From contig DASVVT010000088.1 in assembly GCA_036386415.1 (NCBI GenBank), positions 1 through 64,000 of the forward strand: 64,000 bases of DNA. Reading direction: 5' to 3'. Shown piece by piece: positions 5,761 to 63,348 of this stretch (its first letter is position 1; the number at the start of each line of letters is the position of its first letter). The stretch is from Pyrinomonadaceae bacterium. Its GTDB lineage: Bacteria > Acidobacteriota > Blastocatellia > Pyrinomonadales > Pyrinomonadaceae. Below the pieces are notes generated by a model. That model saw nothing but the letters and a program-made list of their open reading frames with translations, was not told the origin of the DNA and made no database searches. Position numbers and translations under genes: made by a program.

Positions 5761-6333
5761 ATGAGACGAAAACTTTTCACCCGACGCCTTAGCCTGTTGA
5801 TCATCGCCGCTCTGCTCATCGTCCCCGCAAATTTCACGGCCAGTCCAACGCTACCTCCACTGCAACCGAACATCGGAATAAACGGCTTCTTCGCGGCGGA
5901 CAAGGCGCAGCGCGGGCGCACGGTTCAAGCGGCGGTGGTGATGGATATTCCAGAAGGCTTTCACGTCAACTCCAATAAGCCGCTCGGCAAATATGCCATC
6001 GCCACGGTTCTTAAGATCGAAGCGCCGGGCGGCATCAAAGTCGGGCCGGTCATCTATCCGCGCTCGATGTTGCGCAGCTTCAGTTTTTCGCAGGAGAGAT
6101 TGGCGGTTTACGAAGGACGCGCCGTGATGCGCTTCAACGTCACCATCCCGGCAGGCTTTGAGCCGGGCGTGATCGAGCTGCGCGCCAGCGTCAGATACCA
6201 GAGCTGCTCAAATGATGTCTGCTTTCAACCCGCTACACGCAACGTCACCATGCCGATAGCCGTCGTCGGCGCTAATGAATCTGTGAAGCGCATCAACGGT
6301 CAGTTCTTCGGAGGAGGAAGACGGAGGAGGTAG
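5761..6333 (+). CDS. Secreted protein resembling the N-terminal (alpha) domain of thiol:disulfide interchange protein DsbD
   Basis: Signal peptide present. Ig-like region with a YQSCSNDVCFQP Cys pair typical of DsbD-N/DsbC-type PF11412 domains. The stop codon TAG (6331-6333) is the first triplet of repeat element A. Confidence 0.45.
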   Translation: MRRKLFTRRLSLLIIAALLIVPANFTASPTLPPLQPNIGINGFFAADKAQRGRTVQAAVVMDIPEGFHVNSNKPLGKYAIATVLKIEAPGGIKVGPVIYPRSMLRSFSFSQERLAVYEGRAVMRFNVTIPAGFEPGVIELRASVRYQSCSNDVCFQPATRNVTMPIAVVGANESVKRINGQFFGGGRRRR

Positions 6334-6478
6334 ACAGTAGACAGTAGTCAGTAGTCAGTAGTCAGTAGATAAACCGAGTGCCTGTTACGCTCTCAATTAT
6401 GATTCATAATGAGCCGTATCAACCGAGTCAACCGATTTTCTGTTCTACTGGCTACTGACTACTGTCTACTGTCTACTG
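6331..6478. repeat. AGTAGTC-heptamer hairpin element, copy A (loop module in reverse orientation)
   Basis: Left arm TAGACAGTAGACAGTAGTCAGTAGTCAGTAGTCAGTAG (6331-6368) pairs with right arm CTACTGGCTACTGACTACTGTCTACTGTCTACTG (6445-6478). The 76-nt loop contains, on the minus strand, AGAAAATCGGTTGACTCGGTTGATACGGCTCAT. Confidence 0.9.
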
Positions 6479-11230: not shown

Positions 11231-11246
11231 AAAGCTACGACTAGCG
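11231..11246 (+). repeat. 16-bp direct repeat AAAGCTACGACTAGCG, left boundary of the low-GC island
   Basis: Exact copy at 14389-14404. A neighbouring TTGCACAA/TTGTGCAA motif is also duplicated at both ends. Confidence 0.8.
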
Positions 11247-11261
11247 GCTTTGCACAAAAAT

Positions 11262-11392: not shown

Positions 11393-11414
11393 GTAGACAC
11401 TTTAGGGGTGCTTA

Positions 11415-11603
11415 GTGGCCGAAACCAAACTCCCGATTGGAATGGTCAAGCTAGACGGATGCAGATGCAGGTGTGGGCACGAATGGATACCGCGCGTCAA
11501 AGGGGAAAGACCTGCTAATTGCCCTCAGTGTAAAGCTTCAAAGTGGGACAAGCCGAAAGCTTTCAGCCGAAACAAATCAGCTAACAAGAGGGAAGGCGCG
11601 TAA
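11415..11603 (+). CDS. Small zinc-ribbon protein (CxCxC...CPQC) with lysine-rich tail; candidate controller/partner of the downstream RM enzyme
   Basis: 62 aa, motif GCRCRCGHEW...CPQCKASKW. Its TAA stop overlaps the ATG of the next gene (TAATGG at 11601-11605), so the two are translationally coupled. Low-GC codon usage. Confidence 0.5.
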   Translation: MAETKLPIGMVKLDGCRCRCGHEWIPRVKGERPANCPQCKASKWDKPKAFSRNKSANKREGA

Positions 11604-14296
11604 TGGCTCGGTCAACTAAGAAGAGGACGGGAAAGGGTCGCCCTGTAAATAAATACTGCTCGCTGTCCGCGTTGCATAACGAGAGTGACGTAGAGCAGTT
11701 TTTTGTTATGCCACTTCTGACCGATCTAGGTTATGGGCCAGAGTATTTAGAAACTAAGGCGACAGTAACTCAGGTAAAGATAGGAAAGGGGAAGGGAAAG
11801 AAATCCTATATACCAGATTATCTTGCGTATATCAGCACGGAAAAAGAAAAACCTGTACTTATTATAGATGCCAAACATCCCAATCATTCAGCCGAAGAGG
11901 GAGTCAACGATGCACAGCTTTATGCTTCAGTAATTCGCAGGAAGATGGCCGAACCTAAGCCAGAGCAGTATTGTATTGGCGTAAACGGGCATAAATTGAT
12001 ACTGAAGCATTATGATAGTGATGCGTCGATTTACGAATTATCATTCCAAGATTTCAAGGATGACAATCTACTTTTTACCGCTTTCAAACAAGCAATCAAC
12101 CGTGAATCTCTAACTCGTAAACAGAAATTAAAAGAAAAGGAACCGAAAAGCGATTTCGAGTTCCGAACGGTCTCACCGGTTGAACTGCCCGCCATTTTTG
12201 AAGCGTGTCACCGAGCGATCTGGAAAACAGAAAAGCGTAGCCCCGCATCGGCCTTTTATGAATTTGCAAAAGTCATGTTCGTAAAGATTGATGAAGACAA
12301 ACGGTTACATGAACATCTTATCTCAACCAGCCACGATTTTTCATCCGGCAAAGTTCCCAAAGGGGCTGTGCGATTCTCTGTCCATTGGATTGAAGAGATG
12401 GAAGAAGAAACGGATACAGATGATCCAATTAACACTATTCTGTTTGCGCGACTGGCTAAAAATTTAGAAGAACAAATTGCAAACAAAGAGAAGAAACGTA
12501 TTTTCGAGCCAGGTGAGCTAATCAACCTCGCCCCATCTACTATCAAAGATGCAGTAAGATTTTTAGAACACTTAGACCTGTATGCCGTAGATGAAGACCT
12601 TAACGGACGACTCTTCGAGACGTTTTTAACTGCAACTATGCGAGGTGAAGATTTGGGCCAATTCTTCACTCCGCGCTCTGTCGTAAAGTTCATGGTGAAG
12701 TTGGCTAACCTTCAAGCCGCACCGCTAAAAGCGATGGATATGGTCTTAGATGGTTGCTGCGGTACGGGCGGCTTTTTGATTGAGGCGATGGCTGATATGA
12801 GTCACAGCGTGTCAAGCAATCGGGCAATCACAACGAAAGAACAAGAGACACTTCACCGACAATTAAGAACCGAGAATTTATGGGGCATTGATGCTGGTAA
12901 AGACCCTTTGATGGCTCGTATTGCCCGCCTAAACATGCTCCTACACAAAGATGGCGGGAGTCGCATTTACTATGCAGACGCTTTAGACAAACAGTTACGG
13001 ATAGAGTCAGGGTTGCCACTTCAAACACGCCAAGAGATTGACGAACTCCGGTCGAACATAGTAACCGGCGATACACGGTTTTCCTGTGTCCTGAGCAACC
13101 CGCCATTCTCGATGACTTATGAAAGGAAGAAACCAAACGAGAAAGCAATATTAGATGATTACGAATTATCGGTTGATGAAAAGGGAAAGCCAAGAACGTC
13201 ACTACGTTCTTCCGTAATGTTCTTGGAAAGATATTGGGACTTACTAACGGACGATGGCCGCCTCATTACCATTATGGACGAAAGCGTCCTCAATACGCTC
13301 ACGTCCAAACCATTCAGGGAATACCTGCTAGAAAAGTTTATCATCAAGGGTGTTATCGCGCTTCCCAAAAACACTTTTGTCAAGGCGCAGACCGCAGTTA
13401 AGACTTCCGTACTCTTTCTGCGAAAGAAGACCGATCCCGACGAACGCCAACCGGATATATTCATGGCGATTTGCCGGAATGTCGGGCACAGTGACTCTGG
13501 AAAGGAAAGGCCGCACCTCAACGAACTTCCTAATATCCTAAAGGCATTTCGCGTGTTTCAGGAAAAGGGGTCTGTAAAATCTTCAGATCAAGTATTCACC
13601 GTTCCTGACTTGCTGCCGAACAACCCAACTCTGCGTATTGACGCGCATTACTTTAATCCAAAGTATTTCTCTACGATGAAAGCCCTAGATAAAATGGCCT
13701 CAGATAGAGGATGGAAAATTGATACTCTCCAAGACCTGCTAAGGGAAAGCAAGACAGCACTTGCTGGTGGAGCAACCCCGCGAGGCGCATTGTATCCAGA
13801 TGACGGCCCAAAATTCATTCGTGTCCAGAACGTAAAGCCAAACAGATTAGATTGGGACTCAGACGATGCTTGTATTGACACGCGAACACATACGGTAACT
13901 CTAAAGAGGTCTCAGTTAAAAGAAGGTGATGTTGTTCTTACCATTACCGGCAGTTATGGGATTGCCGCAGTTGTTCCGGCAGGATTCGGAGAGGCAAACA
14001 TCAATCAGCATTCCGTTAAGATCGAAGTCGGAGACAAGATCATACCGGAGTACCTTAGCGTCTTTCTAAATTCCAATTTATGCAGACCTCAGTTTGAGAG
14101 GGCAGTAACAGGGTCAAGCAGGCTGGCTTTAGATTACACTTCAATCCGCAATCTACGCATTCTCTATCCAGAGGACAAAGACGAACAACGTAGAATTGCG
14201 AACACCATAATGAAGCAGCTAGAGGCAGTTTCAAATCTGAGGCGTGATGCCACCGCTTTAGATAAAGCGATGGGCGAAGTTCTAACTAACCTTTAG
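11603..14296 (+). CDS. Single-chain restriction-modification enzyme: N-terminal HsdR_N-type PD-(D/E)xK nuclease-like domain, gamma-class N6-adenine DNA methyltransferase (HsdM-like), C-terminal HsdS-like target-recognition domain
   Basis: N-terminus ESDVEQFFVMPLLTDLGYG...IPDY...LIIDAK (PD...D-x-K). MTase motif I region DLGQFFTPRSVV...VLDGCCGTGGFL, motif IV NPPFS. C-terminal TRD resembles an HsdS half (…VVLTITGSYGIAAV…SSRLALDYTSIRNLRILYP). ~42-48% GC against ~63% in flanking genes. Confidence 0.8.
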   Translation: MARSTKKRTGKGRPVNKYCSLSALHNESDVEQFFVMPLLTDLGYGPEYLETKATVTQVKIGKGKGKKSYIPDYLAYISTEKEKPVLIIDAKHPNHSAEEGVNDAQLYASVIRRKMAEPKPEQYCIGVNGHKLILKHYDSDASIYELSFQDFKDDNLLFTAFKQAINRESLTRKQKLKEKEPKSDFEFRTVSPVELPAIFEACHRAIWKTEKRSPASAFYEFAKVMFVKIDEDKRLHEHLISTSHDFSSGKVPKGAVRFSVHWIEEMEEETDTDDPINTILFARLAKNLEEQIANKEKKRIFEPGELINLAPSTIKDAVRFLEHLDLYAVDEDLNGRLFETFLTATMRGEDLGQFFTPRSVVKFMVKLANLQAAPLKAMDMVLDGCCGTGGFLIEAMADMSHSVSSNRAITTKEQETLHRQLRTENLWGIDAGKDPLMARIARLNMLLHKDGGSRIYYADALDKQLRIESGLPLQTRQEIDELRSNIVTGDTRFSCVLSNPPFSMTYERKKPNEKAILDDYELSVDEKGKPRTSLRSSVMFLERYWDLLTDDGRLITIMDESVLNTLTSKPFREYLLEKFIIKGVIALPKNTFVKAQTAVKTSVLFLRKKTDPDERQPDIFMAICRNVGHSDSGKERPHLNELPNILKAFRVFQEKGSVKSSDQVFTVPDLLPNNPTLRIDAHYFNPKYFSTMKALDKMASDRGWKIDTLQDLLRESKTALAGGATPRGALYPDDGPKFIRVQNVKPNRLDWDSDDACIDTRTHTVTLKRSQLKEGDVVLTITGSYGIAAVVPAGFGEANINQHSVKIEVGDKIIPEYLSVFLNSNLCRPQFERAVTGSSRLALDYTSIRNLRILYPEDKDEQRRIANTIMKQLEAVSNLRRDATALDKAMGEVLTNL

Positions 14297-14310
14297 ACCC
14301 CCACTTTTAA

Positions 14311-15295: not shown

Positions 15296-15300
15296 AAGAC

Positions 15301-15392
15301 AGATGTTAGATGTCAGATGCCAGATGTTAGATGTCGGCTCGCGGTCATAGACTCACATCTAACATCTGGCATCTGACATCTGCTTTTTACAC
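15301..15392. terminator. Hairpin built from AGATGTY heptamers (5 units per arm) followed by a T5 run; intergenic terminator-like element
   Basis: AGATGTTAGATGTCAGATGCCAGATGTTAGATGTC -loop- (C)ACATCTAACATCTGGCATCTGACATCTG CTTTTT. Lies between the SurA-like and patatin genes. Confidence 0.7.
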
Positions 15393-19857: not shown

Positions 19858-19990
19858 AAGTAGACAGTAGACAGTAGCCAGTAGTCAGTAGAAAAGAACA
19901 TCCGTTGATGCTATTCAATCATAGACTTCAGCGACAGCGTTCAATGCGCGGAGCGCCTACTGACTACTGTCTACTGGCTACTGACTACTG
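19858..19990. repeat. AGTAGTC-heptamer hairpin element, copy B
   Basis: Arms AAGTAGACAGTAGACAGTAGCCAGTAGTCAGTAG and CTACTGACTACTGTCTACTGGCTACTGACTACTG. Loop AAAAGAACATCCGTTGATGCTATTC… is a degenerate version of the conserved module. Confidence 0.9.
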
Positions 19991-35094: not shown

Positions 35095-35208
35095 GGATTG
35101 CGGAATGCGGATTTCGGATTGCGGATTTATGCTTCTTAATCTCGAATCTGAAATTTGAGATTCCAGATCACAAATCTTGTAATCCGCAATCCACAATCTA
35201 CAATCCCC
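35095..35208. repeat. ATTGCGG-heptamer hairpin element, copy 1
   Basis: Arms GGATTGCGGAATGCGGATTTCGGATTGCGGATTT and AATCCGCAATCCACAATCTACAATCCCC. The loop is the reverse complement (~80% identical) of the loop at 59677-59729. Confidence 0.85.
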
Positions 35209-38075: not shown

Positions 38076-39893
38076 ATGAACCCTTCAAGATTGGCTGACA
38101 ACAAGAGTGGCGGAAAAAGTTTTCGGTACGCCATGATGCATGTCTTCGTGCTCCTCATCTCAATCGCATGTCTCGCCAGCCGCGCCAGCGCGCAATCGCC
38201 CGCCAACACCTCGCCGCAGCCGGGTAGCGGTCTTGACGCTACAGCTAATGCACAGACTGGCACGCAAGGGCGTTCGGTCTTGCGTGGGCGCGTCGTCTAC
38301 GAAGAGAGCGGGCGACCTTTGAGCGACACGTCTGTTGCAATCTTCAGGATGACTCAACCGCATCAGGGCTACGGCGCGATGACCGATGCGCGCGGCGAAT
38401 TTAAGGTGGAGAATCTGCCTGCGGGCAAGTATGCAGTCATGGCCGACGGCCCCGACATTATGGAAGCAGGATTCCTACTTCAGTCTTCGGAGAGCACTAC
38501 TGAAAGACCAATCGTTGAGCTTGACGGAACGAGCGCGGCTTCAGTGCAGGTTCGCGTCCGGCGCGGCGGCGCGATCACAGGTCAGGTCACACGCGCCGAC
38601 GGCAGCCCCGCCGTCGATGCCTTGATTATGCTCATGATTAAAAGGGACGGTCGCATGCTCCCGTTCAAGCGTCGCAACGTGCGTACAGATAAGCAGGGCT
38701 TTTATCGCTTCGGCGGTTTGCCGACCGGCGACTACATAGTTAGCGCAGACGAGTCGTATGAAGAAGTGCAGGCTGATGAAACGCCACGGGACACCAGCTA
38801 CGGAACACTGGTCGGCACTCTCTACCCCGGCACGACCAAAATCAGCGACGCCACGACCGTCCACGTTCAGGAAGGCGGAGAAACGAGCGGCATTAACATC
38901 ACACTCATCAAGCGTGCGACCCACAGAGTCTACGGCACGATCCGCACGCTGCGCGGCGGACTCCCGCGCGGGGAGGCCAGCATCTCCATCCGCGAGAAGG
39001 ATGAGACGCGCAACCTGTCTGCGCTCGAGCAGATAAAGCCGGTTGATGCCGAGGGCAGATGGTGGTTCGACGGTGTGCCTGACGGCACGTATATCTTAAA
39101 CGTCATCCCCAGTGGCAAGCGTCCAGCCGGTTCCGTAGATACGCTGGAGCACGCACAACTTCGCGAGGAGCTTGTCTACCCGTTCCTCTATAAACGTCAG
39201 GAAGTGACGGTGGCGGGTGCTGATCTCAAAGACCTTGTCATAGAGCTATCCGAGGGCGCGAGCGTTTCCGGGACTATCGAGACGGAAAACGGCCAGCCTC
39301 TCCCGCCGGATATAAGCATCGGTGCGCAAGCGGACTTTGCAGTTTCTGCTGCGGCTCGCGTCCGGCCCGACAGAACCTTCAAGCTTCAGGGCATACCGGC
39401 AGGAAACGTTTACCCCTACATCTATACCACTTCGTTCGGCGAGTCTTCGATGAAGGTGATGTTTGACGAGTATTACGTGAAGTCGATCTACGTGGGCGGC
39501 ATAGAACTACAGGGCGAGCCGCTCAAGGTTGAAGAGGGAGCGGAGATTAAAGGCGTGCGCATGGTGATCTCGCGCGAGGTGGCAACGGTGACGGGACATG
39601 TGCGCTCAGCAAAAGATGGCACACCCCAGCGCGGAATCAACGTCGTGCTGCTGCCCACAGACCCCGCACGCCAGCGAGCCGTCAAAGGGCTGCCCTTTGG
39701 ATTCACAAACGCGAAGGGAGCTTTTAGCGCCAGCGGCCCGCCCGGCGAATATTTTGTGGTGGCCTTTGGGGAGAGCGACCTGCCTGTCACCGATGAAAAG
39801 ATCAAAGCGCTCGCCGCCGTCGCCCCGCGCGTTCGGCTTCAACCGAATGAGCGCAAGACCGTAGACCTCACCAGGCAAGAAAGTAAGAAATGA
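38076..39893 (+). CDS. Secreted carboxypeptidase-regulatory-like-domain repeat protein (tandem paralog)
   Basis: Same module order as 36177..38021 (RGRVVYEESGRPL…, ITGQVTRADGSPAVDALIML…). The TGA stop lies inside the left arm of the hairpin at 39889. Confidence 0.65.
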   Translation: MNPSRLADNKSGGKSFRYAMMHVFVLLISIACLASRASAQSPANTSPQPGSGLDATANAQTGTQGRSVLRGRVVYEESGRPLSDTSVAIFRMTQPHQGYGAMTDARGEFKVENLPAGKYAVMADGPDIMEAGFLLQSSESTTERPIVELDGTSAASVQVRVRRGGAITGQVTRADGSPAVDALIMLMIKRDGRMLPFKRRNVRTDKQGFYRFGGLPTGDYIVSADESYEEVQADETPRDTSYGTLVGTLYPGTTKISDATTVHVQEGGETSGINITLIKRATHRVYGTIRTLRGGLPRGEASISIREKDETRNLSALEQIKPVDAEGRWWFDGVPDGTYILNVIPSGKRPAGSVDTLEHAQLREELVYPFLYKRQEVTVAGADLKDLVIELSEGASVSGTIETENGQPLPPDISIGAQADFAVSAAARVRPDRTFKLQGIPAGNVYPYIYTTSFGESSMKVMFDEYYVKSIYVGGIELQGEPLKVEEGAEIKGVRMVISREVATVTGHVRSAKDGTPQRGINVVLLPTDPARQRAVKGLPFGFTNAKGAFSASGPPGEYFVVAFGESDLPVTDEKIKALAAVAPRVRLQPNERKTVDLTRQESKK

Positions 39894-39985
39894 TGAATGC
39901 GGAATGCGGAATGATGAATTAAGAACAGAACCGAAAGGAACGGCTTCCTTCTTTTCATTCATCATTCCGCATTCCGCATTCATCA
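39889..39985. repeat. Perfect 31-bp hairpin built from AATGMKG heptamers (singleton)
   Basis: AATGATGAATGCGGAATGCGGAATGATGAAT -35 nt loop- ATTCATCATTCCGCATTCCGCATTCATCATT. Confidence 0.85.
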
Positions 39986-40162
39986 TTTGCTTTTTCGTTT
40001 GATCTGGCTACAATGATGTGGTCGCAAACGGCATGGGCCATACTCACCGTCTACGCCAATTATCAATCAAAGTTTCCCCCGGCCCTTTTGCCCTCCCGGA
40101 AATTTTCGCTCTCCCGCCTGTTTCCCCGTAAGCGTTTGGTTGTGGCTTGAGAAATCTGCGAG

Positions 40163-40612
40163 GTGTCTAGCGAAATGGCTGAACTGTTGCGCGCACTCGC
40201 CGCACGGCTGCACAGGTACATAGGTGATCGTCGTCGCGCCCCACGACACGGGGTGCGCCTGGCCGTCACTCTCTGGCTGCCTGACGGCCCGCTCAATTCA
40301 AACGGCGTGCGCCGACGCTCGCCCGTGCTTGAGGGCTTCACACGCGATGTGAGCGCAACCGGGCTGGCGCTCATCCTGCCCGCCATTCGCATCGGCGAAC
40401 ACTACCTGATCGGCGAAGGCCGCAACCTGCGCCTCCGGCTTGAACTTCCGACGGGGGCGATCCAGATGGATGTCACTCCCGTGCGCTACGAGCGTCTTGA
40501 AGAGGAGCAGGCGGAAAAGGGCTACCTCATCGGCGTCCTGATCGCGGAGATGAGCGACGAAGATCGCCAACGCTACAACGAAGGAATGAAAACAGTAGAC
40601 AGTAGCCAGTAG
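40163..40612 (+). CDS. PilZ-domain c-di-GMP-binding protein
   Basis: RRRAPRHGVRL (RxxxR) and DVSATGLAL (DxSxxG) PilZ motifs. The last 5 codons and the TAG stop lie in repeat C. Confidence 0.7.
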   Translation: MSSEMAELLRALAARLHRYIGDRRRAPRHGVRLAVTLWLPDGPLNSNGVRRRSPVLEGFTRDVSATGLALILPAIRIGEHYLIGEGRNLRLRLELPTGAIQMDVTPVRYERLEEEQAEKGYLIGVLIAEMSDEDRQRYNEGMKTVDSSQ

Positions 40613-40740
40613 TCAGTAGCCAGTAGAAAAGAAAATCGGTTGATGCGGTTGATACGGCTCATCTAACTTCATAGTAGGCAGCAAAGCTTGATGCCCTGCT
40701 TTCGTTTCTACTGGCTACTGACTACTGGCTACTGTCTACT
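40594..40740. repeat. AGTAGTC-heptamer hairpin element, copy C (perfect 33-bp stem)
   Basis: AGTAGACAGTAGCCAGTAGTCAGTAGCCAGTAG / exact reverse complement at 40707-40740. Loop AAAAGAAAATCGGTTGATGCGGTTGATACGGCTCATCT…. Confidence 0.95.
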
Positions 40741-41393: not shown

Positions 41394-41535
41394 AGTAGAC
41401 AGTAGTCGGTAGACAGCAGACAGTAGAAAAGAAAATCTGTTGACGCGGTTGATGCTGCTCATCTCAATCATCGTAGGCAACGTAGTAGATACTCTGTTTT
41501 ATCTACTGCCTACTGACTACTGACTACTGTCTACT
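41394..41535. repeat. AGTAGTC-heptamer hairpin element, copy D
   Basis: Arms AGTAGACAGTAGTCGGTAGACAGCAGACAGTAG / CTACTGCCTACTGACTACTGACTACTGTCTACT (imperfect). Loop AAAAGAAAATCTGTTGACGCGGTTGATGCTGCTCATCT…. Confidence 0.9.
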
Positions 41536-42145: not shown

Positions 42146-42241
42146 TTAAACGCAGAGGACGCAAAGGTATTTCGCAAAGGAGGCCAAAGAGTAAATCCTC
42201 TGCGTACTCTGCGTAGAACCTTTGCGCCCTCTGCGTTTAAA
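42146..42241. repeat. CGCAAAG-type hairpin element, copy G3
   Basis: TTTAAACGCAGAGGACGCAAAGGTATTTCGCAAAGG … CCTCTGCGTACTCTGCGTAGAACCTTTGCGCCCTCTGCGTTTAAA. The TAA stop of the MFS gene lies in the terminal TTTAAA. Confidence 0.85.
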
Positions 42242-46804: not shown

Positions 46805-46851
46805 CGTGAGTTCGACATAAGCGGCACAGCCGCTTATGTCGAACTCACGTT
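46803..46851. repeat. Minimal copy of the AACGTGAGTTCGAC-TIR element (23-bp perfect stem, 4-nt loop) overlapping the stop codon of the HD-GYP gene
   Basis: AACGTGAGTTCGACATAAGCGGC ACAG GCCGCTTATGTCGAACTCACGTT. The gene's TAA stop is at 46802-46804. Confidence 0.85.
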
Positions 46852-47019
46852 AAATTAAGGGGCGCTTAAGGCTCAGGCAGAAGAAGCAATCCTGTTTTTG
46901 CTTCCTGCTGCCTCCTGCTTTTTGCCCTCTGCCTTCTGTTATATTATGGGCTGGGAGCGTTTTCCCCCCGGCGATGGTCGAAGAGGCCGCCGGAGCGCTT
47001 TCTGGAATCGCTTGCTGCC

Positions 47020-53563: not shown

Positions 53564-54673
53564 GTGACATTTCTTTCTCTCCAAAACATCTCGAAGCGAT
53601 ACGACGCGACCGTGGCCGTCGCCGATCTTTCGCTCGCCATCGAGCGGGGCGAGTTCTTCGGGCTGCTCGGCCCGTCCGGGTGCGGCAAGACGACTACGCT
53701 GCGTATGATCGCAGGCCTGGAGACGCCGGACAGAGGGGTCATACAGTTCGATGGTCGGGACATCACGCGGCTCTCGCCCGAGCGGCGCGGCTTCGGCATG
53801 GTCTTTCAAAACTACGCGCTCTTCCCTCACCTAGACGTCTTTGAGAACGTCGCCTTCGGCCTGCGCGCGCGCCGTCGCCCGAAGGCGGAGATCACGGAGC
53901 GCGTCAAGAGCGCCCTCCAACTGGTGCAGCTTCCAGGCTACGAGCGGCGTCGCACGGGCGAGCTTTCGGGCGGCCAGCAACAGAGAGTCGCCATCGCGCG
54001 CGCCATCAGTATTGAGCCTGCGCTCCTGCTCTTTGACGAGCCACTCTCGAACCTGGACGTAGCCCTGCGCGAAGAGACGCGCGGCGAATTGCGCGAGCTG
54101 GTGGCACGCCTGAACCTGACCGCCGTTTACGTCACGCACGACCAGGAGGAAGCCTTCGCGCTCTGCGACCGCATCTGCGTGATGAGCGAAGGCCGCAGCC
54201 TGCAAACAGGAACGCCGCGCGAGCTTTACGAACGTCCCGCAGAGGCGCTGGTCGCACGCTTTCTCGGACGCAACAATCTCATCAAAGCCATGCGCCTGAG
54301 CGCCAGCCACGTCCGCAGCGCAACCTTCAAGACCCTCGAAGGCGGCCACACGCTCAACGTCTTCGTCCGGAAGGAGGATTTAAGCCCTCTCAACTCCGCC
54401 GCGACGCTCGCCATACGCCCGGAGTATCTACGTCTCAGTAAGACAGAAATAGTGGAAGATAACACTCTCCAAGCGACCGTTCGTGAGATCAACTTCACGG
54501 GCGCAACGACAAGCATCAAGCTGGACGCGGGCGGTCTCGCCCTCGAAGCCCTCGTCATTCAGGCGGACGGCCTCTCCGTCGGCGACGCCTGCATGGTCAT
54601 GCTGCCCCCTCAACACATCACGATCTTAGGGATGAACAAAGGGATGAGGGATGAACGAAGGGATGAGGGATGA
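53564..54673 (+). CDS. ABC transporter ATP-binding protein (FbpC/PotA family with C-terminal TOBE domain)
   Basis: Walker A GPSGCGKTT, Q-loop, signature LSGGQQQRVAIARA, Walker B LLLFDEPLS, H-loop. Confidence 0.9.
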   Translation: MTFLSLQNISKRYDATVAVADLSLAIERGEFFGLLGPSGCGKTTTLRMIAGLETPDRGVIQFDGRDITRLSPERRGFGMVFQNYALFPHLDVFENVAFGLRARRRPKAEITERVKSALQLVQLPGYERRRTGELSGGQQQRVAIARAISIEPALLLFDEPLSNLDVALREETRGELRELVARLNLTAVYVTHDQEEAFALCDRICVMSEGRSLQTGTPRELYERPAEALVARFLGRNNLIKAMRLSASHVRSATFKTLEGGHTLNVFVRKEDLSPLNSAATLAIRPEYLRLSKTEIVEDNTLQATVREINFTGATTSIKLDAGGLALEALVIQADGLSVGDACMVMLPPQHITILGMNKGMRDERRDEG

Positions 54674-54850
54674 GGGATGAGGGATGAAGAAAAGAAAGCA
54701 GCAGGCGGCAAGCAGAGCGCAGTAAGCGGAAAGCGTGAGAGCGTAAGCAACAAAAATCCAACCTCTGCTGGCTTTAGCTTTTTGTCTTCATTCATCCCTC
54801 ATCCCTCATCCCTCATCCCTTCGCAAGTCCCTCATCCCTCATCCCTCATC
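54629..54850. repeat. Hairpin built from AGGGATG heptamers (>=8 units per arm) at the junction of the two ABC transporter genes
   Basis: AGGGATGAACAAAGGGATGAGGGATGAACGAAGGGATGAGGGATGAGGGATGAGGGATGAAG -98-nt loop- CTTCATTCATCCCTCATCCCTCATCCCTTCGCAAGTCCCTCATCCCTCATCCCTCATCCTTTCG. Confidence 0.9.
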
Positions 54851-56506
54851 CTTTCGTTTGTTGTCTTCCTCGTTCTCCTTTACGGCGTCGTCTATCCGAA
54901 TCTTCATGTGCTCGTCGCTTCGCTCTTGCGCGACGGCGCATGGTCTGTGGGTAATTACGTAGAGGCGCTCTCTAGCCGCACGGTGCAGGAATCAATCGCG
55001 TCGAGCATCGGCCTGTCGCTGCTGACGGTTCTGTTGTGCGCGCTGGTCGGTGTGCCGCTGGCTTTCCTCTTCGAGCGCTATGCGTTTCCGGCGCGGCGGC
55101 TCTTTGCGACGCTCGCGACGCTCCCGCTCGTGCTTCCGCCCCTGGTCGGCACGGTCGCCTTCATCTTCCTGTGCGGCGAGTCTGGCATTCTGGCGCGCGC
55201 CGTCCAGTGGGCGTTTGATTTAAGGAGCGCGCCGTGGTCTTTGCGCGGGTGGACGGCGCTTTTGATCTTTCACACCTACACGATGTACCCGTTCTTTTAC
55301 GTCCTGACAGGAGCCGGACTCAGGCTGACGGACGCAGGGCTCAGCGAAGCCGCGCGCAGTCTCGGCGCACAGCCCTTCACAGTTCTGCGTCGCGTCGTGC
55401 TGCCGCAACTGACGCCTTCTCTCATCGCCGCCGCGCTCCTGACCTTTATGACTTCAATGGCATCGTTTAGCGCGCCGCTTCTGTTCGGGGGCGGCGTGCG
55501 CGTGCTGACGCTTGAAATCTACAACGCGCGACAGCGCGGCGACGGGGCGGTGGCGCTCACGGAGACCGTCATCCTGGCGATAATCTCGCTTTGCGCGCTC
55601 CTCTTCTTTCAGCGCTACGAGGGGACGCGCCGGTTCGTCGCGGCGGCCATGAAGGGCACTGCGCGCCGCCGCTCGCCCATTAAGAGCGGGACGACGCGCG
55701 CCGTAGCCGTCATCTGCGGCTCCGTTTTCAGCATCGCCCTGGCGCTGCCGGTCGCCACGCTCGTGCTCGTCAGTTTCGCACGCGAAGGAGGCTGGACGAC
55801 GCAAGCCCTGCCTCCCTCATACACGCTCGATAACTACGCGCGTCTGCTCACCGAAGGCGGGACGGGCGAGGTGATTATCAACAGCCTGTTGATGTCCGGC
55901 ATCGCGGCTCTCGCGGCGCTCTGCTGGAGTTTCTGCGCAGCATCTCTGGTGGCGGGTGGTAAAAGATCAAGCGGCGTGAGATCAAGATGGCGGCGCGTGG
56001 TCTCGCTGCTCGTGCTCGTCCCCTGGGCTTTGCCGGGCACGGTCGTCGCTATCAGCATCAGTGAAGCTTACGGCGAGACGAACCCGCTCACGGGCTCCTT
56101 CATTCTCGTCGGCACGTTCTGGATTCTACCCGTCATCTACTTTCTGCGTTTTATGCCGCTCGTGGTGCGCGCCGTGCAGGCCAGCATGGAGCAGATAGAC
56201 CCTGCGCTGGAAGAAGCGGCGGGGAGCCTCGGCGCGCATTGGTGGCAGCGCTTCTGGCGTGTGCGGCTGCCGCTCATCTGGCACGGCGCGCTCGCAGGCG
56301 CGCTGCTGGCGTTCGTCATCGCGCTCGGCGAATACGTCGCCAGCGTGCTCGTCTTCGTCCCTTCAAACCGCCCCATCTCAATCGCCATCGCGAGCGAGAT
56401 GCGCGACTTTCGACTGGGCACTGCCGCCGCCTACGGCGTGATACTCATCTTCATCATCGCCGCCAGCATGGCAATCGCCGCAAGGCTGGAAAAAAGGAGA
56501 CGGTAA
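54677..56506 (+). CDS. ABC transporter permease with duplicated transmembrane domains (FbpB/ThiP-like); start codon uncertain
   Basis: Two EAA-loop-containing permease halves. The first ~55 codons of the listed ORF are encoded by the AGGGATG hairpin, so the true start is probably downstream (~54850+). Confidence 0.8.
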   Translation: MRDEEKKAAGGKQSAVSGKRESVSNKNPTSAGFSFLSSFIPHPSSLIPSQVPHPSSLILSFVVFLVLLYGVVYPNLHVLVASLLRDGAWSVGNYVEALSSRTVQESIASSIGLSLLTVLLCALVGVPLAFLFERYAFPARRLFATLATLPLVLPPLVGTVAFIFLCGESGILARAVQWAFDLRSAPWSLRGWTALLIFHTYTMYPFFYVLTGAGLRLTDAGLSEAARSLGAQPFTVLRRVVLPQLTPSLIAAALLTFMTSMASFSAPLLFGGGVRVLTLEIYNARQRGDGAVALTETVILAIISLCALLFFQRYEGTRRFVAAAMKGTARRRSPIKSGTTRAVAVICGSVFSIALALPVATLVLVSFAREGGWTTQALPPSYTLDNYARLLTEGGTGEVIINSLLMSGIAALAALCWSFCAASLVAGGKRSSGVRSRWRRVVSLLVLVPWALPGTVVAISISEAYGETNPLTGSFILVGTFWILPVIYFLRFMPLVVRAVQASMEQIDPALEEAAGSLGAHWWQRFWRVRLPLIWHGALAGALLAFVIALGEYVASVLVFVPSNRPISIAIASEMRDFRLGTAAAYGVILIFIIAASMAIAARLEKRRR

Positions 56507-56636
56507 GTCAGTAGACAGTAGTCAGTAGTCAGTAGCCAGTAGAAAAGCGTTCGCTAGCGAGCGCGTCATGGTGACGGCGTCAGTACCCGCAGCGCGGAGC
56601 GCCTACTGACTACTGACTACTGTCTACTGTCTACTG
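56507..56636. repeat. AGTAGTC-heptamer hairpin element, copy E
   Basis: GTCAGTAGACAGTAGTCAGTAGTCAGTAGCCAGTAG / CTACTGACTACTGACTACTGTCTACTGTCTACTG. Loop diverged but shares GCGCGGAGCGCCTACTGAC with copy B. Confidence 0.9.
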
Positions 56637-56638
56637 TA

Positions 56639-57136
56639 TTGTATATTCTTCCCTTGATGGCTCTCTTTAACTGTCTGAAGTGGCCTGAGATGCGGGAGGT
56701 TGCGCTCGAACTCATCGCGAGGGTGCATGAGGGGCACGGGCGCGGGCGCTTCTCGATCCCTGTGGTCGATTTCGCGCGCGTCTTTGCGCCCGGTGCGAGT
56801 GAGACGGAATTAGCGAAAGTCGCAGAGCGCGGCGACATTCATTTCACGGCGCAGGGTGAGAGCGGCGGCACGTTCACACTTACAGCGGGGCTGCGTGCGA
56901 CCTTCGATCTGGGACGCGAGGGGCTGGTCATGCGCGTCCCCGAACGCATGAGCGGCCACTACGAGGTTCGCGCTCGCGCTTTCAATATAGAATTCAACAA
57001 AGGCGAAGAGCTGGAAGGCTGCAAACGTCTTCTGATTCTCGTCTGCCATCGCGTCGTCAGCGTGGAGGTCTCTTCCGCGCGCGTCGATGTGCACTTACCG
57101 AGCAGGATTTTTGACCTGTGTGTAGAGTTCGGATGA
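56639..57136 (+). CDS. Hypothetical protein (TTG start; may start further downstream at MREVALEL)
   Basis: ORF only; no recognisable motif. Confidence 0.35.
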   Translation: MYILPLMALFNCLKWPEMREVALELIARVHEGHGRGRFSIPVVDFARVFAPGASETELAKVAERGDIHFTAQGESGGTFTLTAGLRATFDLGREGLVMRVPERMSGHYEVRARAFNIEFNKGEELEGCKRLLILVCHRVVSVEVSSARVDVHLPSRIFDLCVEFG

Positions 57137-59781
57137 TTATCAATCAAAGATCACAGAACAAGCATCTGCACCACGCGGTGCGCGCTTTCCTCGCGTTCTC
57201 TCTCGCGGCGCTGCTGGCCGTCTCCTGGCTCGACGATGTCGCGCCGCGATCCCTGGCAGCCAGCACGTCGAAAGAGGATGCGGCGCTCTATCAGGCGCTG
57301 CTTGACCTGACCAATCCCTGGACGGTGATGTGCGTCGCCGCGCACCCGGACGACGAGGACGGCGCGACGCTGACCCTGCTCCGGCGCAAATACGGCGTGC
57401 ATACCGTGACGCTCTTTTCCACTTACGGCGAAGGCGGCCAGAACGCCGTCGGGCCGGAGTTGTACGAAGAGTTGGGCGCGATGCGCGCGCGTGAGACGCT
57501 GGAAGCGGCGGAGATTCAAGGCTCTGAAGCCTACTTTCTGGGGCTGCGTGATTTCGGCTTCTCGAAGTCCGCTGAGGAGGCTTTTCGCGTCTGGGGTCAC
57601 GAAGAGGCGCTCAAACGCATGGTCTTACAGATTCGGCGGCTGCGCCCGGACGTGATCATCACCAACCACGACACAGGAAGCGGCCACGGCCATCACCAGG
57701 CGACCGGACGGCTCGTGCTGGAAGCTTTCGATATGGCTGCCGACCCCGCACGATTCCCCGAACAACTGCGCGCCGGTCTGAGCGTCTGGCAGCCGCAGAG
57801 GCTTTTCGTACGCACCTTCTCTGAAAGCGGAGCTGGCGACAAAAAGGGCGCAGATGAAGCCCGTGGTCTGATTTCCATAGATGTCAACGAGCGCGACGCG
57901 GCGTGGGGATCGACGTACGCGCAGCAGGCTTTGCGCGCTCTGCAACGCCATGCCACGCAGGGCCCCTGGCCGCCAACGATTCCCGCAGGCGGACGCCCGC
58001 TCATTCGCTATCGCCTCGCGCGCACAGCGAAAGAGGCCGCGCCGTTGCCCGGCAATGCATCTTCATTCCTCGATGGTCTGACTCTGCCCGAATCCGTTGC
58101 AGGAAAACTCAGGCTATCGGCAGCGAGGACTTTCCTGGCGCTTTACGCCGATGCGGGAGGAGAAGGCGAACGCGTGCTCGGCGCGCTCATCGCTGCACGA
58201 AAAGAACGCGGACTCTTTGCACTGACCACAAACGATGACCCGCGCTTCCTCTTGATGTCCGCGCGCTTCGACCGCGCGCTGGCTGTGGCGAGCGGCGTCT
58301 CAGTAAACTTCGAGCCGCGCCGCGAGCCTTTGATACCCGGCGTGCACGCCGCTTTCAACATCAACATAGAAAATCGAGGCACTCTGCCCGTCACCGTCAA
58401 GAGCCTGTCTTTCAGCGGAGGCGGGCAAGGCGCGACGCCTCTGCTCAAGGAGCCCGTAGAGGTTGCGCCAGGCAAAACGTTTGTCGCCAAGGCCGAGTAT
58501 ACCGGCGCGAAGGCTTTAACGATCAACGTACCCCACGCGGCGCATCTTTACGATGGACGCGTCTTCGGCGAGCAGTTCAGCGCAGAAGCGTTAGTCAATC
58601 TGGGCGGCACGAGCTTTCCCGTCGTCTCGAAAACAATGGTCGATGTCGCGCCCGCCGTGGAGATCAAAAGCATCACGCCGTCGCCCATCGTCCTGACGCC
58701 GACAACTATCAATAAGCCCGTGCCTTTTACGCTCCGTCTTGTCAATCACCAGCGCGCGGAGTTCAGAGGAAGGGTCAAACTCGGCGGCCTGATAAATACA
58801 ACGCGCTCTGATCTACGGTTCACGATTGGAGCCAATGAGACGCTCGATTTTAAGAACCAGTTGAGCTTTCCCGCAGACCGCAATCGGCCAGGTCACGCCA
58901 ACAAGCCTGTCCCGGATGTGTTGGCGTTCGCAATCATCCCAGAGGGCAGGCAGAAACCGCTCACGCAGCAGACAGTCCGGGTCGCATACAGCGACGCGCG
59001 CGTTGCGGCTGGACTTCGCGTCGGCTACGTGCGCAGTTTCGACGACACATTGCGCGATGCCCTGGCTGCGCTCGGCGTCGAAGCGAAAGAGTTAACGGTC
59101 GATGATATTCGCGTCGGCGATTTAAAGCCGTATGACACGATCATCATCGACAATCGCGGTTATCAGGCGCACACGGAACTGATCGCCGCCAACCCGCGCC
59201 TGCTTGAGTACGTGAGCGCAGGGGGCACGCTGATCGTTTTCTATCACAAGCCGAATGAGTGGAATCCAGACCCCTCGAAGGGGCGCACGCAGCTTGCGCC
59301 CTACACGATCATGGCAGGCAACGAGCGCGTCACGGACGAGAACGCAGGCGTAGCCTTCGTCGAGCCCGCGCACGCGCTGCTCAACTTTCCGAACAAGATC
59401 ACGGCGGACGATTTCAGAGGCTGGATTCAAGAGCGCGGCCTCTATTATCCGGATCAATGGGATGAGCATTACAGCGCTCCGCTCGCCTCAAGCGATGCGG
59501 GCGAGAAGCCTTTGCGGGGCGGCTTGCTGGCCGCTGATTATGGGCGCGGGCGCTACATCTACACGAGCATGGTCTGGTACAGACAACTGCGCGCCGGCAT
59601 CCCCGGTGCTTATCGTATGTTCGCCAACATGCTCAGCTATGGGCGTATGCGGAATGCTGATTTCGGATTGCGGATTGAAAGATTTGTGATCTCAAATCTC
59701 AGACTTCAGATTCGAGATTCCAGGAGCGCCAATCCGCATTCCGCATTCCGAAATCCGCATTCCGTTTGGGGTTTTGAATGA
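57118..59781 (+). CDS. Secreted PIG-L/LmbE-family N-acetylglucosaminyl deacetylase with a large C-terminal extension (ThuA/class-I-glutamine-amidotransferase-like domain)
   Basis: AAHPDDEDGA and HDTGSGHGHH metal-binding motifs of the PIG-L family. Signal peptide. The last ~44 codons are encoded by hairpin element 59648-59764. Confidence 0.75.
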   Translation: MCRVRMIINQRSQNKHLHHAVRAFLAFSLAALLAVSWLDDVAPRSLAASTSKEDAALYQALLDLTNPWTVMCVAAHPDDEDGATLTLLRRKYGVHTVTLFSTYGEGGQNAVGPELYEELGAMRARETLEAAEIQGSEAYFLGLRDFGFSKSAEEAFRVWGHEEALKRMVLQIRRLRPDVIITNHDTGSGHGHHQATGRLVLEAFDMAADPARFPEQLRAGLSVWQPQRLFVRTFSESGAGDKKGADEARGLISIDVNERDAAWGSTYAQQALRALQRHATQGPWPPTIPAGGRPLIRYRLARTAKEAAPLPGNASSFLDGLTLPESVAGKLRLSAARTFLALYADAGGEGERVLGALIAARKERGLFALTTNDDPRFLLMSARFDRALAVASGVSVNFEPRREPLIPGVHAAFNINIENRGTLPVTVKSLSFSGGGQGATPLLKEPVEVAPGKTFVAKAEYTGAKALTINVPHAAHLYDGRVFGEQFSAEALVNLGGTSFPVVSKTMVDVAPAVEIKSITPSPIVLTPTTINKPVPFTLRLVNHQRAEFRGRVKLGGLINTTRSDLRFTIGANETLDFKNQLSFPADRNRPGHANKPVPDVLAFAIIPEGRQKPLTQQTVRVAYSDARVAAGLRVGYVRSFDDTLRDALAALGVEAKELTVDDIRVGDLKPYDTIIIDNRGYQAHTELIAANPRLLEYVSAGGTLIVFYHKPNEWNPDPSKGRTQLAPYTIMAGNERVTDENAGVAFVEPAHALLNFPNKITADDFRGWIQERGLYYPDQWDEHYSAPLASSDAGEKPLRGGLLAADYGRGRYIYTSMVWYRQLRAGIPGAYRMFANMLSYGRMRNADFGLRIERFVISNLRLQIRDSRSANPHSAFRNPHSVWGFE
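59648..59764. repeat. ATTGCGG-heptamer hairpin element, copy 2
   Basis: Arms GCGGAATGCTGATTTCGGATTGCGGATTG / CAATCCGCATTCCGCATTCCGAAATCCGCATTCCG. Loop AAGATTTGTGATCTCAAATCTCAGACTTCAGATTCGAGATTCCAGG is conserved with copy 1 (reverse orientation). Confidence 0.85.
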
Positions 59782-61105: not shown

Positions 61106-61481
61106 CAGATCATTCCCGTAGACGGGCAGCCTGCTGCTCATGCTGACAGGCTGGCGATTAAGTCGCTGTGCATGCGGTGCGCTTTTGAGCGCGACCGGCT
61201 CTGTCATGAGGCCGTCCTGAACCTGACGGCGACGCGTCAGTTGACTGGCGCGAGGTAGGGGAGAAGTGTCTCATCGATTTCCGGCTCATCTTCTGCATCT
61301 CGCCACGCTCGGTCACCCCCATCATTAAACTCTAGCCGCAGTGCCGACTCGCTCACTCGTCTCTCACCTTTGATTCAGATTGCGCACTACACACCTGTGA
61401 GCGTTAATCGCCATCTCTTGCGTACGTTTTCATTGTGCTATCATCTAGAGCGGATTCGATTCGCCTGTACGGAAGATAAAC

Positions 61482-61575
61482 TGCAAAGGTCGCCAAGGAA
61501 ACCGCAGAGGGCGCTGGAGATTCCTTTTGCGCCCTCTGCGTCTTCATCCTTTGCGTCCTTTGCGGTGGCATGGCT
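61482..61575. repeat. CGCAAAG-type hairpin element, copy G6
   Basis: CTGCAAAGGTCGCCAAGGAAACCGCAGAGGGCGC … GCGCCCTCTGCGTCTTCATCCTTTGCGTCCTTTGCGG. Confidence 0.8.
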
Positions 61576-61659
61576 CTCGCCGTACACACGATTGAAATTT
61601 GTTCTAGATCCGCTGCATTTCCCTGCTAGATTGAAAGGCTCACCTCTGATACAGCCGTC

Positions 61660-62496: not shown

Positions 62497-62532
62497 GTCA
62501 AAAGCTAAACGGTAGAGTCCTGCTGTGATTAG

Positions 62533-62640
62533 TGCTCTGTGCCGCCTCTCTCGTCCTGCGGTGTCTGCGGTGGTGAGTGGTTCTGAAAGTTGATTCACCA
62601 CCGCAGACACCGCAGAACGCGGAGGATGCACAGAGAAGAG
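62533..62640. repeat. ~105-nt structured hairpin repeat, copy 2 (perfect 21-bp inner stem), between convergent thiD and ppiB
   Basis: CTGCGGTGTCTGCGGTGGTGA (62557-62577) / TCACCACCGCAGACACCGCAG (62596-62616). Outer arms GTGCTCTGTGCCGCCTCTC / GCGGAGGATGCACAGAG. Confidence 0.85.
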
Positions 62641-62705
62641 ATGGAACCAGGAGACTACTAGCTAAACAGTCTTTATCTTCTGATTTCTGACTCCAGACTC
62701 TAAAC

Positions 62706-63212: not shown

Positions 63213-63348
63213 AGTAGTCAGTAGTCAGTAGTCAGTAATCAGTAGAAAGAAAGACCGCCTTTGCTGTCAACTTTGATTTAGATGCTCAATACGAGAACGC
63301 GTCAACCGCTTTTCTTTCCTACTGGCTACTGACTACTGACTACTGTCT
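63213..63348. repeat. AGTAGTC-heptamer hairpin element, copy F (loop module in reverse orientation)
   Basis: AGTAGTCAGTAGTCAGTAGTCAGTAATCAGTAG / CTACTGGCTACTGACTACTGACTACTGTCT. The minus strand of the loop carries GAAAGAAAAGCGGTTGACGCG…GAGCATCT. Confidence 0.9.

Follow-up and report, generated by a model that had tools for sequence, protein, structure and literature searches.

The window analysed here is a 64,000-nucleotide (nt) stretch of genomic DNA from a Pyrinomonadaceae bacterium (contig DASVVT010000088.1, positions 1 to 64,000). It carries two genes of an ATP-binding cassette (ABC) transporter operon, one for an ATPase and one, on the same strand, for a fused two-domain permease of the iron(III) type. 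The two genes meet inside a large hairpin, an imperfect palindrome with a tandem array of a 7-nt unit in each arm: AGGGATG in the left arm, CATCCCT in the right (Table 1). It is one member of a dispersed class of palindromic repeats with arms of tandem 7-nt units, a copy retained among orthologs, and its identity and anatomy are given here with high confidence. An initial annotation had placed the hairpin at 54629-54850; it extends slightly further on both sides and lies far beyond shuffled expectation. When at most one mismatch is allowed, AGGGATGAGGGATG occurs nine times in the window, all at 54640-54853, against 0.07 times in shuffles; the inverted repeat is real and far above chance. The best pair of arms (54640-54688 with 54791-54839) is 92% complementary over 49 nt, and Tandem Repeats Finder (TRF) reports period-7 arrays at 54640-54687 (7.1 copies) and 54792-54851 (8.9 copies). 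Exact units are fewer than the eight or more per arm counted initially: there are seven AGGGATG in the left arm, and six CATCCCT plus one CATCCTT in the right.

As RNA, the hairpin is predicted to fold with a minimum free energy (MFE) of −131.8 kcal/mol and 81 base pairs, including a perfect 33-bp helix formed by the two inner arms. Further out, the MFE structure pairs 54628-54635 with 54839-54846 and 54641-54652 with 54827-54838. A slightly larger region, 54610-54880, gives −136.8 kcal/mol (z = −11.9). The loop, first described as 98 nt long and purine-rich, measures 102 nt; its first 62 nt are indeed 77% purine, but the figure falls to 61% overall. Within it lies a decayed nested palindrome (54693-54717 with 54763-54789). 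No Rfam family reached the gathering threshold anywhere in the window, and a promoter and terminator scan found no promoter-like or terminator-like site coinciding with the hairpin. We saw no flanking direct repeats of the kind left by a target-site duplication at this or the other heptamer hairpins of the window, where no empty site was available for a clean comparison.

Both genes run into the element. In the ATPase the Pfam TOBE_2 match stops at residue 355 (nt 54628), exactly where the 5′ arm begins, so the last 14 ATPase residues (GMNKGMRDERRDEG) are encoded by the element, as is the stop codon. An overlap of the left arm with the end of the ATPase gene had been recognized from the outset. 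The permease start, by contrast, had been assigned to the right arm together with some 55 codons; its ATG lies in the left arm, which encodes residues 1-4, while the loop encodes residues 5-38 and the right arm only residues 39-61. Read as peptide, the repeat gives MRDE (ATG AGG GAT GA.) on one side and FIPHPSSLIL (TTC ATC CCT CAT CCC TCA TCC CTC ATC CTT) on the other. Within the inner 5′ arm lie a Shine-Dalgarno (SD)-like GAGGG (54665-54669), the stop of the ATPase, the start of the permease, and a fourfold G3N4 motif (54660-54683).

The composition of the unit accounts for this arrangement. Because 7 is coprime to 3, every reading frame of (AGGGATG)n contains both a TGA and an ATG, the ATG always 7 nt after a GAGGG, and an incoming ATPase frame must therefore end in the 5′ arm, within 21 nt. 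The complement, (CATCCCT)n, is stop-free in all three frames, so the loop and 3′ arm can be translated through.

The predicted fold pairs the GAGGG, the ATPase stop and the permease ATG within the 33-bp helix, and occlusion of the permease start, as first suggested, therefore stands. From this occlusion it had been proposed that the hairpin could be an RNA thermometer or a transcription attenuator, either of which we consider exceedingly improbable. A perfect 33-bp helix in a structure of −132 kcal/mol is too stable to melt at physiological temperatures and is not the weak, mismatched leader hairpin of a thermometer. The element is intercistronic, between two open reading frames (ORFs), rather than in a leader. 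We found neither a terminator/antiterminator alternative nor a U tract, in keeping with the empty terminator and Rfam scans.

Table 1. Coordinates of the junction hairpin, the genes that share it, and other palindromic repeats (window positions unless a locus is given)
Feature	Position	Strand	Remarks
ABC transporter ATPase gene (ABC_tran + TOBE_2)	53564..54673	+	ORF list, Pfam
Whole hairpin	54628-54858		Imperfect palindrome; AGGGATG arrays left, CATCCCT arrays right
Outer 5′ arm (AGGGATGAACAAAGGGATGAGGGATGA)	54628..54654	+	MFE structure, TRF
Inner 5′ arm	54656..54688	+	One strand of the perfect 33-bp helix
ATPase stop TGA	54671..54673	+	Within helix; pairs with 54806-54808
Permease start ATG	54677..54679	+	Within helix; pairs with 54800-54802; 3 nt beyond ATPase stop
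Fused two-domain ABC permease gene (iron(III)-type; two BPD_transp_1 stretches)	54677..56506	+	609-aa ORF, Pfam, homologs
Loop, 102 nt	54689..54790	+	Translated as permease residues 5-38
Inner 3′ arm (TTCATCCCTCATCCCTCATCCCTCATCCCTTCG)	54791..54823	+	Read as ...FIPHPSSLIPS...
Outer 3′ arm (GTCCCTCATCCCTCATCCCTCATCCTTTCGTT)	54827..54858	+	Read as ...VPHPSSLILSF; continues straight into coding sequence of the first transmembrane segment
CAGTAGN-family hairpin	6330..6478		Loop homologous to loops at 40592, 41394, 63213
CAGATGT / ACATCTG heptamer hairpin	15300..15382		TRF, inverted pairing
CAGTAGN-family heptamer hairpin	19859..19990
GGATTGC / AATCCRC heptamer hairpin	35095..35206		Loop homologous, as reverse complement, to 59648 loop
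AATGMKG / TCATTCM heptamer hairpin	39889..39987
CAGTAGN-family heptamer hairpin	40592..40740
CAGTAGN-family heptamer hairpin	41394..41535
CAGTAGN-family hairpin	56506..56637		Fills entire spacer from permease stop to next ORF
TGCGGAT / TCCGCAT heptamer hairpin	59648..59764		3′ end of ORF 57118..59781 reads through
CAGTAGN-family heptamer hairpin	63213..63345
8-9-nt-unit palindromes, window	32379, 42198-42215, 43618/43693, 50558, 61547
8-9-nt-unit palindromes, other loci	L002 13033; L003 69; L011 1041 + 7629; L014 1040 + 4409; L067 9694

The junction in related species

We compared the permease loci of 80 GTDB species-representative genomes (L001-L080), all from Pyrinomonadaceae or Blastocatellia; homologs with a taxon name in their annotation are all Acidobacteriota, mostly Pyrinomonadaceae. 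One permease clade comprises 35 species, and in 18 of them RGGATG arrays stand upstream and CATCCY arrays downstream at the same junction. The ATPase stop in this clade is mostly a TGA in the 5′ arm, and the permease ATG lies at −4 (an ATGA overlap) or +3 in most species. ATPase C-terminal tails differ among the orthologs (KDEG, GMRDEG, GMNKGTRDEG). A close relative, L081, which is syntenic over 20 kb at 90-96% nucleotide identity, also has this hairpin, with a shorter loop (about 25 nt); the window copy has some 120 nt more, made up of the inner arm pair and the decayed nested palindrome. Four hairpins lie in the part of the window that L081 shares, and L081 has every one of them; the hairpin loop of another locus, L203, is homologous to the loop in the window.

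The sister clade has other palindromes at the same junction, namely octamer arrays (read '...SPRL...') and an element resembling the repetitive extragenic palindromic (REP) sequences. The initial annotation had asked whether orthologous operons lack the insert: a few species do, and 18 of the 35 species of the first clade share the hairpin. Outgroups without the RGGATG hairpin end in ...CTGAAGGATGAGTAG or ...CTGAAGGATGACTGA. The REP-like palindrome of the sister clade (…GCGGCTTTGCCGCCTGATGTGCGGAAGGTCTC … GGTGGGGCAGAGCCACCACCGCACATCAGGCGGCAAAGCCGC) sits at the ATPase-permease junction of L017, L029, L055, L056, L063, L068, L078 and others, and it appears in predicted permease N-termini as 'VGQSHHRTSGGKAA'.

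The comparison bears on where the permease begins. Residues V66, L67, Y69, G70, Y73, P74 and N75 of the first transmembrane segment (TM1) are invariant in 35 homologs. TM1 is thus fixed at the protein level, which places the permease start codon further upstream. There, the 5′-arm ATG is the sole in-frame ATG, GTG or TTG in most species of the clade. The window has one additional candidate, a TTG in the loop (54782-54784), and the arm ATG is the solution that is conserved. No stop interrupts the frame between that ATG and TM1, across loop and 3′ arm, in any hairpin-bearing species. On this comparative evidence the element is translated as an N-terminal tail of the permease ahead of TM1, and the sequence is both a repeat element and genuine coding sequence.

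A translated array of 7-nt units, 7 not being a multiple of 3, could also serve as a contingency locus, with slippage in the 3′ arm shifting the permease frame off and on, and copy number does vary between species. We nevertheless find phase variation highly unlikely: the frame is open in every species examined, and the arrays are short (three or four units) and interrupted. Two short permease calls, P0007 and P0010, were considered as frameshifted, phase-off alleles and rejected. In L203 (1357-1503, protein P0007) gene callers differ between a TTG at TM1 and the 5′-arm ATG; the frame is open from the latter, and the caller had chosen the TTG. The second call, from L204, begins at a contig end.

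Another explanation that would dispense with the DNA element is that HPSSLIP is an ordinary protein repeat, selected as a permease motif, and that its complement upstream is a coincidence. An HPSSLI-like motif does stand just before TM1 (...VLLYGVVYPN) in 56 of the 120 best permease homologs, and 32 of the 120 begin with MRDE or MKDE. The initial annotation held that alignment of orthologs through the HPSSL region would make it coding sequence rather than an element. The alignment exists, yet it does not speak against the element, for several reasons. The motif simply spells out, in amino acids, a DNA repeat that has its inverted complement upstream in the same species. Conservation lies in this DNA repeat at the shared junction, and the permease orthologs align through HPSSL because they contain the repeat. 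The stretch between the MRDE/MKDE start and the motif varies freely in length and sequence, and 3-72 residues precede the YGVVYP motif. In a subclade that has lost the 5′ arm, the remaining 3′ arm reads FILHPSSLIL, FIPHGSSLVL or FIPDPSVIVL; since the motif decays there, the peptide is not the conserved thing. Finally, the same heptamer hairpin recurs in many unrelated contexts, non-coding sites among them. A selected protein motif is therefore scarcely credible.

A dispersed class of heptamer palindromes

To place the hairpin in its class, we took a census with TRF of the window and the 80 loci, 1.2 Mb in total, and counted as a pair any array with an inverted complementary array within 300 nt. 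Tandem arrays numbered 345 of period 7, 114 of period 8 and 35 of period 6. They formed 124 inverted pairs, of which 110 were heptamer and 14 octamer pairs. About 60 different units were represented, the median loop was 34 nt, and a further 214 arrays were unpaired. Pairs occur about once per 10 kb of the sampled sequence, with at least 11 in the 64-kb window, and palindromes occupy most intergenic spacers of the sampled genomes. None of 121 lies deep inside a gene; 70 are in co-directional, 28 in convergent and 13 in divergent spacers. Per intergenic nucleotide, divergent spacers hold about 2.3-fold fewer (0.36/kb versus 0.85/kb elsewhere; p = 0.002); counted per region, the depletion is not significant (10% versus 14.5%; p = 0.26). 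A typical co-directional copy is separated from the upstream stop by a median of 5 nt and from the downstream start by 9 nt. Across the class, the arms are 92% complementary.

The 5′ arm is the purine-richer one in 84 pairs versus 39 (p = 6 × 10−5), and its units contain little C (A 272, G 272, T 216, C 123). Since a palindrome is identical on both strands, this asymmetry is intrinsic to the class. It is a bias only, and we discarded the rule that every hairpin begins with a purine-rich arm.

Copies built of the same unit can share their loops. This holds for six CAGTAGN and two GGATTGC copies in the window and for the AAGGATG copies of L005 and L009; AGGGATG has a single copy in the window. 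In L009, a hairpin after the permease stop (9677-9793) is nearly identical, loop included, to the junction hairpin (7945-8054) 1.7 kb upstream. At this second site the relative L005 (9677-9773) carries a different loop, which points to gene conversion between copies 1.7 kb apart.

We also scanned metagenomes for (AGGGATG)4. Among the 80 matches listed, 31 have a partner array, on contigs of 39-70% guanine-plus-cytosine (GC) content and with unrelated loops. None of these 31 listed pairs is at a permease junction, and the idea that the AGGGATG unit is specific to this operon was dropped. Ten of the 80 listed matches lie at contig ends, where the available sequence has no partner array; contig breaks tend to fall within these repeats. 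Heptamer palindromes nest within the loops of other heptamer palindromes in L087, L137 and L155 (metagenome), at the L051 and L069 junctions, and at 54693-54789 in the window, with GGGGAAA, CAGAATA or GGCGGAA arrays enclosed by AGGGATG arms. The tips of hairpins seem to be the preferred place for new copies to arise or land.

Such repeats reach protein termini elsewhere. In the window, the C-terminal tail (...ISNLRLQIRDSRSANPHSAFRNPHS) of a PIG-L family ORF, 57118..59781, is encoded by the TGCGGAT-family hairpin listed in Table 1. Repeat-derived peptides likely contaminate protein termini throughout Pyrinomonadaceae genomes; HPSSLIP, MRDE..., ISNLRLQI and RNPHSAF at Acidobacteriota protein termini are translated repeats. 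Such peptides will seed spurious motifs and inconsistent start calls, P0007 being an example.

The G-rich 5′ arm at the junction could form a quadruplex, in DNA or RNA, that competes with the hairpin as a switch, a role suggested before for GGGNATC repeats in Xanthomonas and Nostoc. The stretch 54660-54683 is a canonical G3N4G3N4G3N4G3 motif that covers both the stop and the start codon, and GGGAATC-type heptamers form quadruplexes in vitro (PMC4692102). However, about a third of the orthologous hairpins are built of AAGGATG and have no GGG tracts, so quadruplex potential is not conserved. Most units in the census are likewise free of G tracts, and the competing duplex is very stable. A quadruplex switch is conceivable for this copy but very unlikely.

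The position of class members invites a further explanation, that the hairpin acts on the mRNA as a processing or stability element or as a partial terminator. An RNase III-like cut or a block to 3′-exonucleases would let the ATPase segment outlive the permease segment, which would fit a need for subunits at 2:1. A perfect 33-bp helix would suit such a role, as would a class that begins about 5 nt past stop codons and is rarer per nucleotide in divergent spacers. Comparable cases would be the REP sequences between malE and malF, or operon-internal Correia elements and enterobacterial repetitive intergenic consensus (ERIC) elements. Correia inverted repeats are documented targets of RNase III, and ERIC elements are known to affect transcripts (PMC10969869). 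Against this, cleavage in the stem would part the permease start codon from its ORF and so destroy the message, the terminator scan shows no site at the hairpin, and the divergent-spacer depletion loses significance per region. Processing or stabilization is plausible for the hairpin class as a whole, but as the explanation of this copy it is unlikely.

Proposed translational coupling and its alternatives

Overall, the hairpin is best explained as a retained palindromic repeat, element and coding sequence at once, that probably enforces translational coupling between the ATPase and the permease. In the mRNA, the long helix would hide the SD-like GAGGG, the ATPase stop and the permease start, and free ribosomes would be unable to initiate on the permease. 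A ribosome completing the ATPase ORF would melt the helix and halt 3 nt before the ATG. Permease synthesis would then be tied to ATPase synthesis through RNA unfolding, termination-reinitiation, or both, with the permease initiating at one of the last ATGs of the array and the loop and 3′ arm serving as a disposable cytoplasmic N-terminal tail (...FIPHPSSLIL). Permease output would probably be held below that of the ATPase, which would suit two ATPases to one fused permease; because the complex needs this ratio, a coupler with an efficiency below 1 would make sense.

Several findings are consistent with coupling. It is most efficient at stop-start spacings of −4 to +3, and both RNA-unfolding and termination-reinitiation models have been described (PMC12548453). 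The ORFs here are co-directional, with a spacing of +3 in the window and of −4 or +3 in most species of the clade, and the predicted helix takes up the SD-like sequence together with the stop and start codons. Structure at the ATPase-permease junction is also stronger than at other junctions: the median z is −4.2 (n = 60), compared with −0.8 at the other co-directional junctions of the same loci (n = 220), and z falls below −4 in 52% versus 22% (Mann-Whitney p = 9 × 10−7, not corrected for phylogeny). The level of junction structure, the different element types found in different clades, and the wider spacing after 5′-arm loss favour selection, as supporting evidence short of proof.

Other findings count against coupling as a selected function. 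The junction enrichment test is confounded by shared ancestry, and about 14% of all co-directional junctions carry such hairpins. One subclade (L015, L031, L025, L039, L043) has lost the 5′ arm with its operon intact, and only the decaying 3′ arm is left; the hairpin is thus dispensable. Sense-strand arm mismatches show no G·U bias, as selection on the RNA might leave: in the junction-type (RGGATG) hairpins 16 are of the wobble type and 12 anti-wobble, and overall there are 73 and 59, with 129 transversions making up about half. Covariation between A/G variants of the left-arm units and T/C variants of the right-arm units is weak (rho 0.22, p = 0.38, n = 18), so we do not claim compensatory evolution; the sister species L008 and L021 differ in one arm only. 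Folding the whole region on both strands was uninformative as to selection at the RNA level. Complementarity could be kept without selection by common origin, by gene conversion as in L009, or by templated correction of quasi-palindromes. Such template-switch correction was reportedly described by Ripley in 1982 and by Lovett and co-workers.

These same points feed the alternative that we take most seriously, a neutral passenger. A selfish or spontaneous palindrome would have inserted into, or grown out of, the permissive 5′ end of the permease ORF, kept by inheritance and concerted evolution, with no selected regulation; it might be tolerated only since its unit happens to supply a stop, a start and an open 3′ arm. 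Besides the loss of the hairpin in one subclade, the missing G·U bias, the weak covariation and the gene conversion, this possibility gains from the loop, which changes greatly between close relatives (the window and L081), from the listed metagenome matches, in which the same unit makes hairpins at unrelated sites on contigs of widely differing GC, and from the palindromes that fill most spacers of these genomes. Yet a passenger does not readily account for the junction itself. Most of the 60 species hold some strong palindrome there, of element types that differ by clade, and the junction is significantly more structured than control junctions. The spacing sits at the coupling optimum in most hairpin-bearing species and is looser (+6 to +62) after loss of the 5′ arm. 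A 33-bp helix on a start codon is also very unlikely to be without effect on expression. A simply tolerated insertion, which the initial annotation had offered as an option, accordingly stays a live and tentative alternative, while coupling is the reading we favour. That a role in coupling or in setting the subunit ratio has been selected is, on the model above, quite possible but short of probable.

A stronger version of coupling would make the hairpin a selected, repeat-built cassette, amplified in place from a native AAGGATGA stop/start overlap by a mechanism that generates or homogenizes repeats in 7-nt steps. We consider this origin decidedly unlikely. If it were true, the same 7-nt-step mechanism would make the heptamer palindromes across these genomes, probably hundreds per genome and many of them nested.

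Other features of the window and comparison with known systems

The window holds repeats of other kinds. A second palindromic family with 8-9-nt units (CGCAAAGG / CCTTTGCG), usually three per arm, is common among the sampled Pyrinomonadaceae loci (Table 1). A near-perfect 48-nt palindrome (ACGTGAGTTCGACATAAGCGGC aca GCCGCTTATGTCGAACTCACGT) at about 46805-46860 is absent from L081 (at about 2360) and has AAATTA duplicated at its flanks. It looks like a recent insertion resembling a miniature inverted-repeat transposable element (MITE), with a target duplication, and of a different kind from the heptamer hairpins. Two further blocks, 61446-61603 (157 nt) and 62509-62684 (175 nt), are not in L081, and both are rich in repeats and palindromes. 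Between the window and L081, intergenic spacers turn over wholesale and genes remain 90-96% identical.

A low-GC island at 10500-14300 (40-48% GC versus 59% for the window) was probably acquired horizontally. It includes an 897-aa ORF (11603..14296, + strand) with N6_Mtase, Eco57I and HSDR_N domains, which by its domains looks like a fused type IIG/IIL-like restriction-modification enzyme. Upstream of this ORF, at 11274-11371, lies an AT-rich 13/39-nt tandem repeat.

The wider heptamer class is more interesting than the single hairpin. With a palindrome every 6-10 kb or so, dozens of units, nesting and gene conversion, Pyrinomonadaceae offer comparative material on the 7-nt step and on function. 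The copy described here shows a repeat living inside an operon: two genes borrow their ends from it, because its unit encodes a stop, an SD-like sequence and a start and its complement is stop-free. It is also a natural case for testing structure-enforced coupling in an ABC importer that needs its subunits at 2:1.

Tandem heptamer arrays, inverted pairs among them, are of a kind already described in cyanobacteria, Xanthomonas, Beggiatoaceae and Bacteroidetes. New here are the lineage, the diversity and nesting of the units, a copy shared by two cistrons that draw their stop, SD-like sequence and start from it, and the persistence of this copy across a family-level clade. Within the incomplete coverage of our literature search, we found no report linking heptamer repeats with Acidobacteria, Blastocatellia or Pyrinomonas. 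Heptanucleotide repeats of cyanobacteria, the short tandemly repeated repetitive (STRR) sequences, were reportedly described by Mazel et al. in 1990. TAACTGA direct repeats occur in Beggiatoaceae, cyanobacteria and Bacteroidetes, with one inverted case, and a role in translational regulation has been suggested for them (MacGregor 2015, PMC4679880). Like the STRR and TAACTGA repeats, those of Pyrinomonadaceae have a 7-nt period, several unit families per genome and intergenic positions, some beside start codons. STRR and TAACTGA repeats form mostly direct arrays, whereas inverted pairs, which defined our census, are prominent here alongside the unpaired arrays.

The closest match is found in Xanthomonas and Nostoc, where GGGAATC and GGGGA(C/T)T heptamers form tandem arrays with a preference for about four units (Rehm et al. 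2015, PMC4692102). Xanthomonas genomes hold 70-75 convergent GGGAATC array pairs each, capable of forming stem-loops. The GGGAATC repeats are spread over the genome, enriched in non-coding sequence between aligned ORFs and near stop codons, and under-represented between divergent ORFs; they keep their position between related genomes and form quadruplexes in vitro (PMC4692102). The AGGGATG hairpin resembles them in its tandem unit of the form GGGNATN, its convergent complementary array, the many dispersed extragenic copies of its kind, its place near a stop, its position kept in relatives, and its quadruplex potential, although the four G tracts of this copy are absent from the AAGGATG orthologs and from most other units. 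It differs in belonging to Acidobacteriota and to a class of about 60 units that are mostly not G-rich, with long loops that are homologous within families and sometimes nested. This copy, moreover, is intra-operonic, has both of its sides translated, and provides a stop, an SD-like sequence and a start.

REP elements are short imperfect palindromes tied to RAYT transposases, with an intercistronic example between malE and malF. Inverted REP doublets forming a larger hairpin are known as REPINs (PMC3116915). The heptamer hairpins share with both a dispersal of extragenic palindromes at 3′ ends and intercistronic operon sites, including an ABC transporter operon, but their arms consist of tandem heptamers and are not themselves palindromic.

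Rickettsia palindromic elements (RPEs) and other MITEs lie in frame within ORFs, and Correia and ERIC elements inside operons of Neisseria and Yersinia can alter transcript processing (PMC10969869). The junction hairpin is likewise a palindrome inside coding sequence that keeps the frame and, on the comparative evidence, is translated. Tandem heptamers make up its arms, in place of unique terminal inverted repeats, and it sits at the extreme N-terminus, overlapping the end of the upstream gene. Unlike MITEs, it shows no target-site duplication, and we saw no partner transposase, although no transposase search was made. Core sequence is homologous among the CAGTAGN, GGATTGC and AAGGATG (L005, L009) copies; AGGGATG occurs once in the window, and the loops of the metagenome AGGGATG copies are unrelated.

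Translational coupling itself is known from the coat and lysis genes of phage MS2, genes VII and IX of f1, and trpE-trpD (reviewed in PMC12548453). The ATPase and permease genes resemble these in their co-directional ORFs, their −4/+3 spacing, and a downstream ribosome-binding site that is predicted to be buried in structure the upstream ribosome must open. They would differ in a very long helix derived from a repeat, whose second strand lies inside the downstream ORF.

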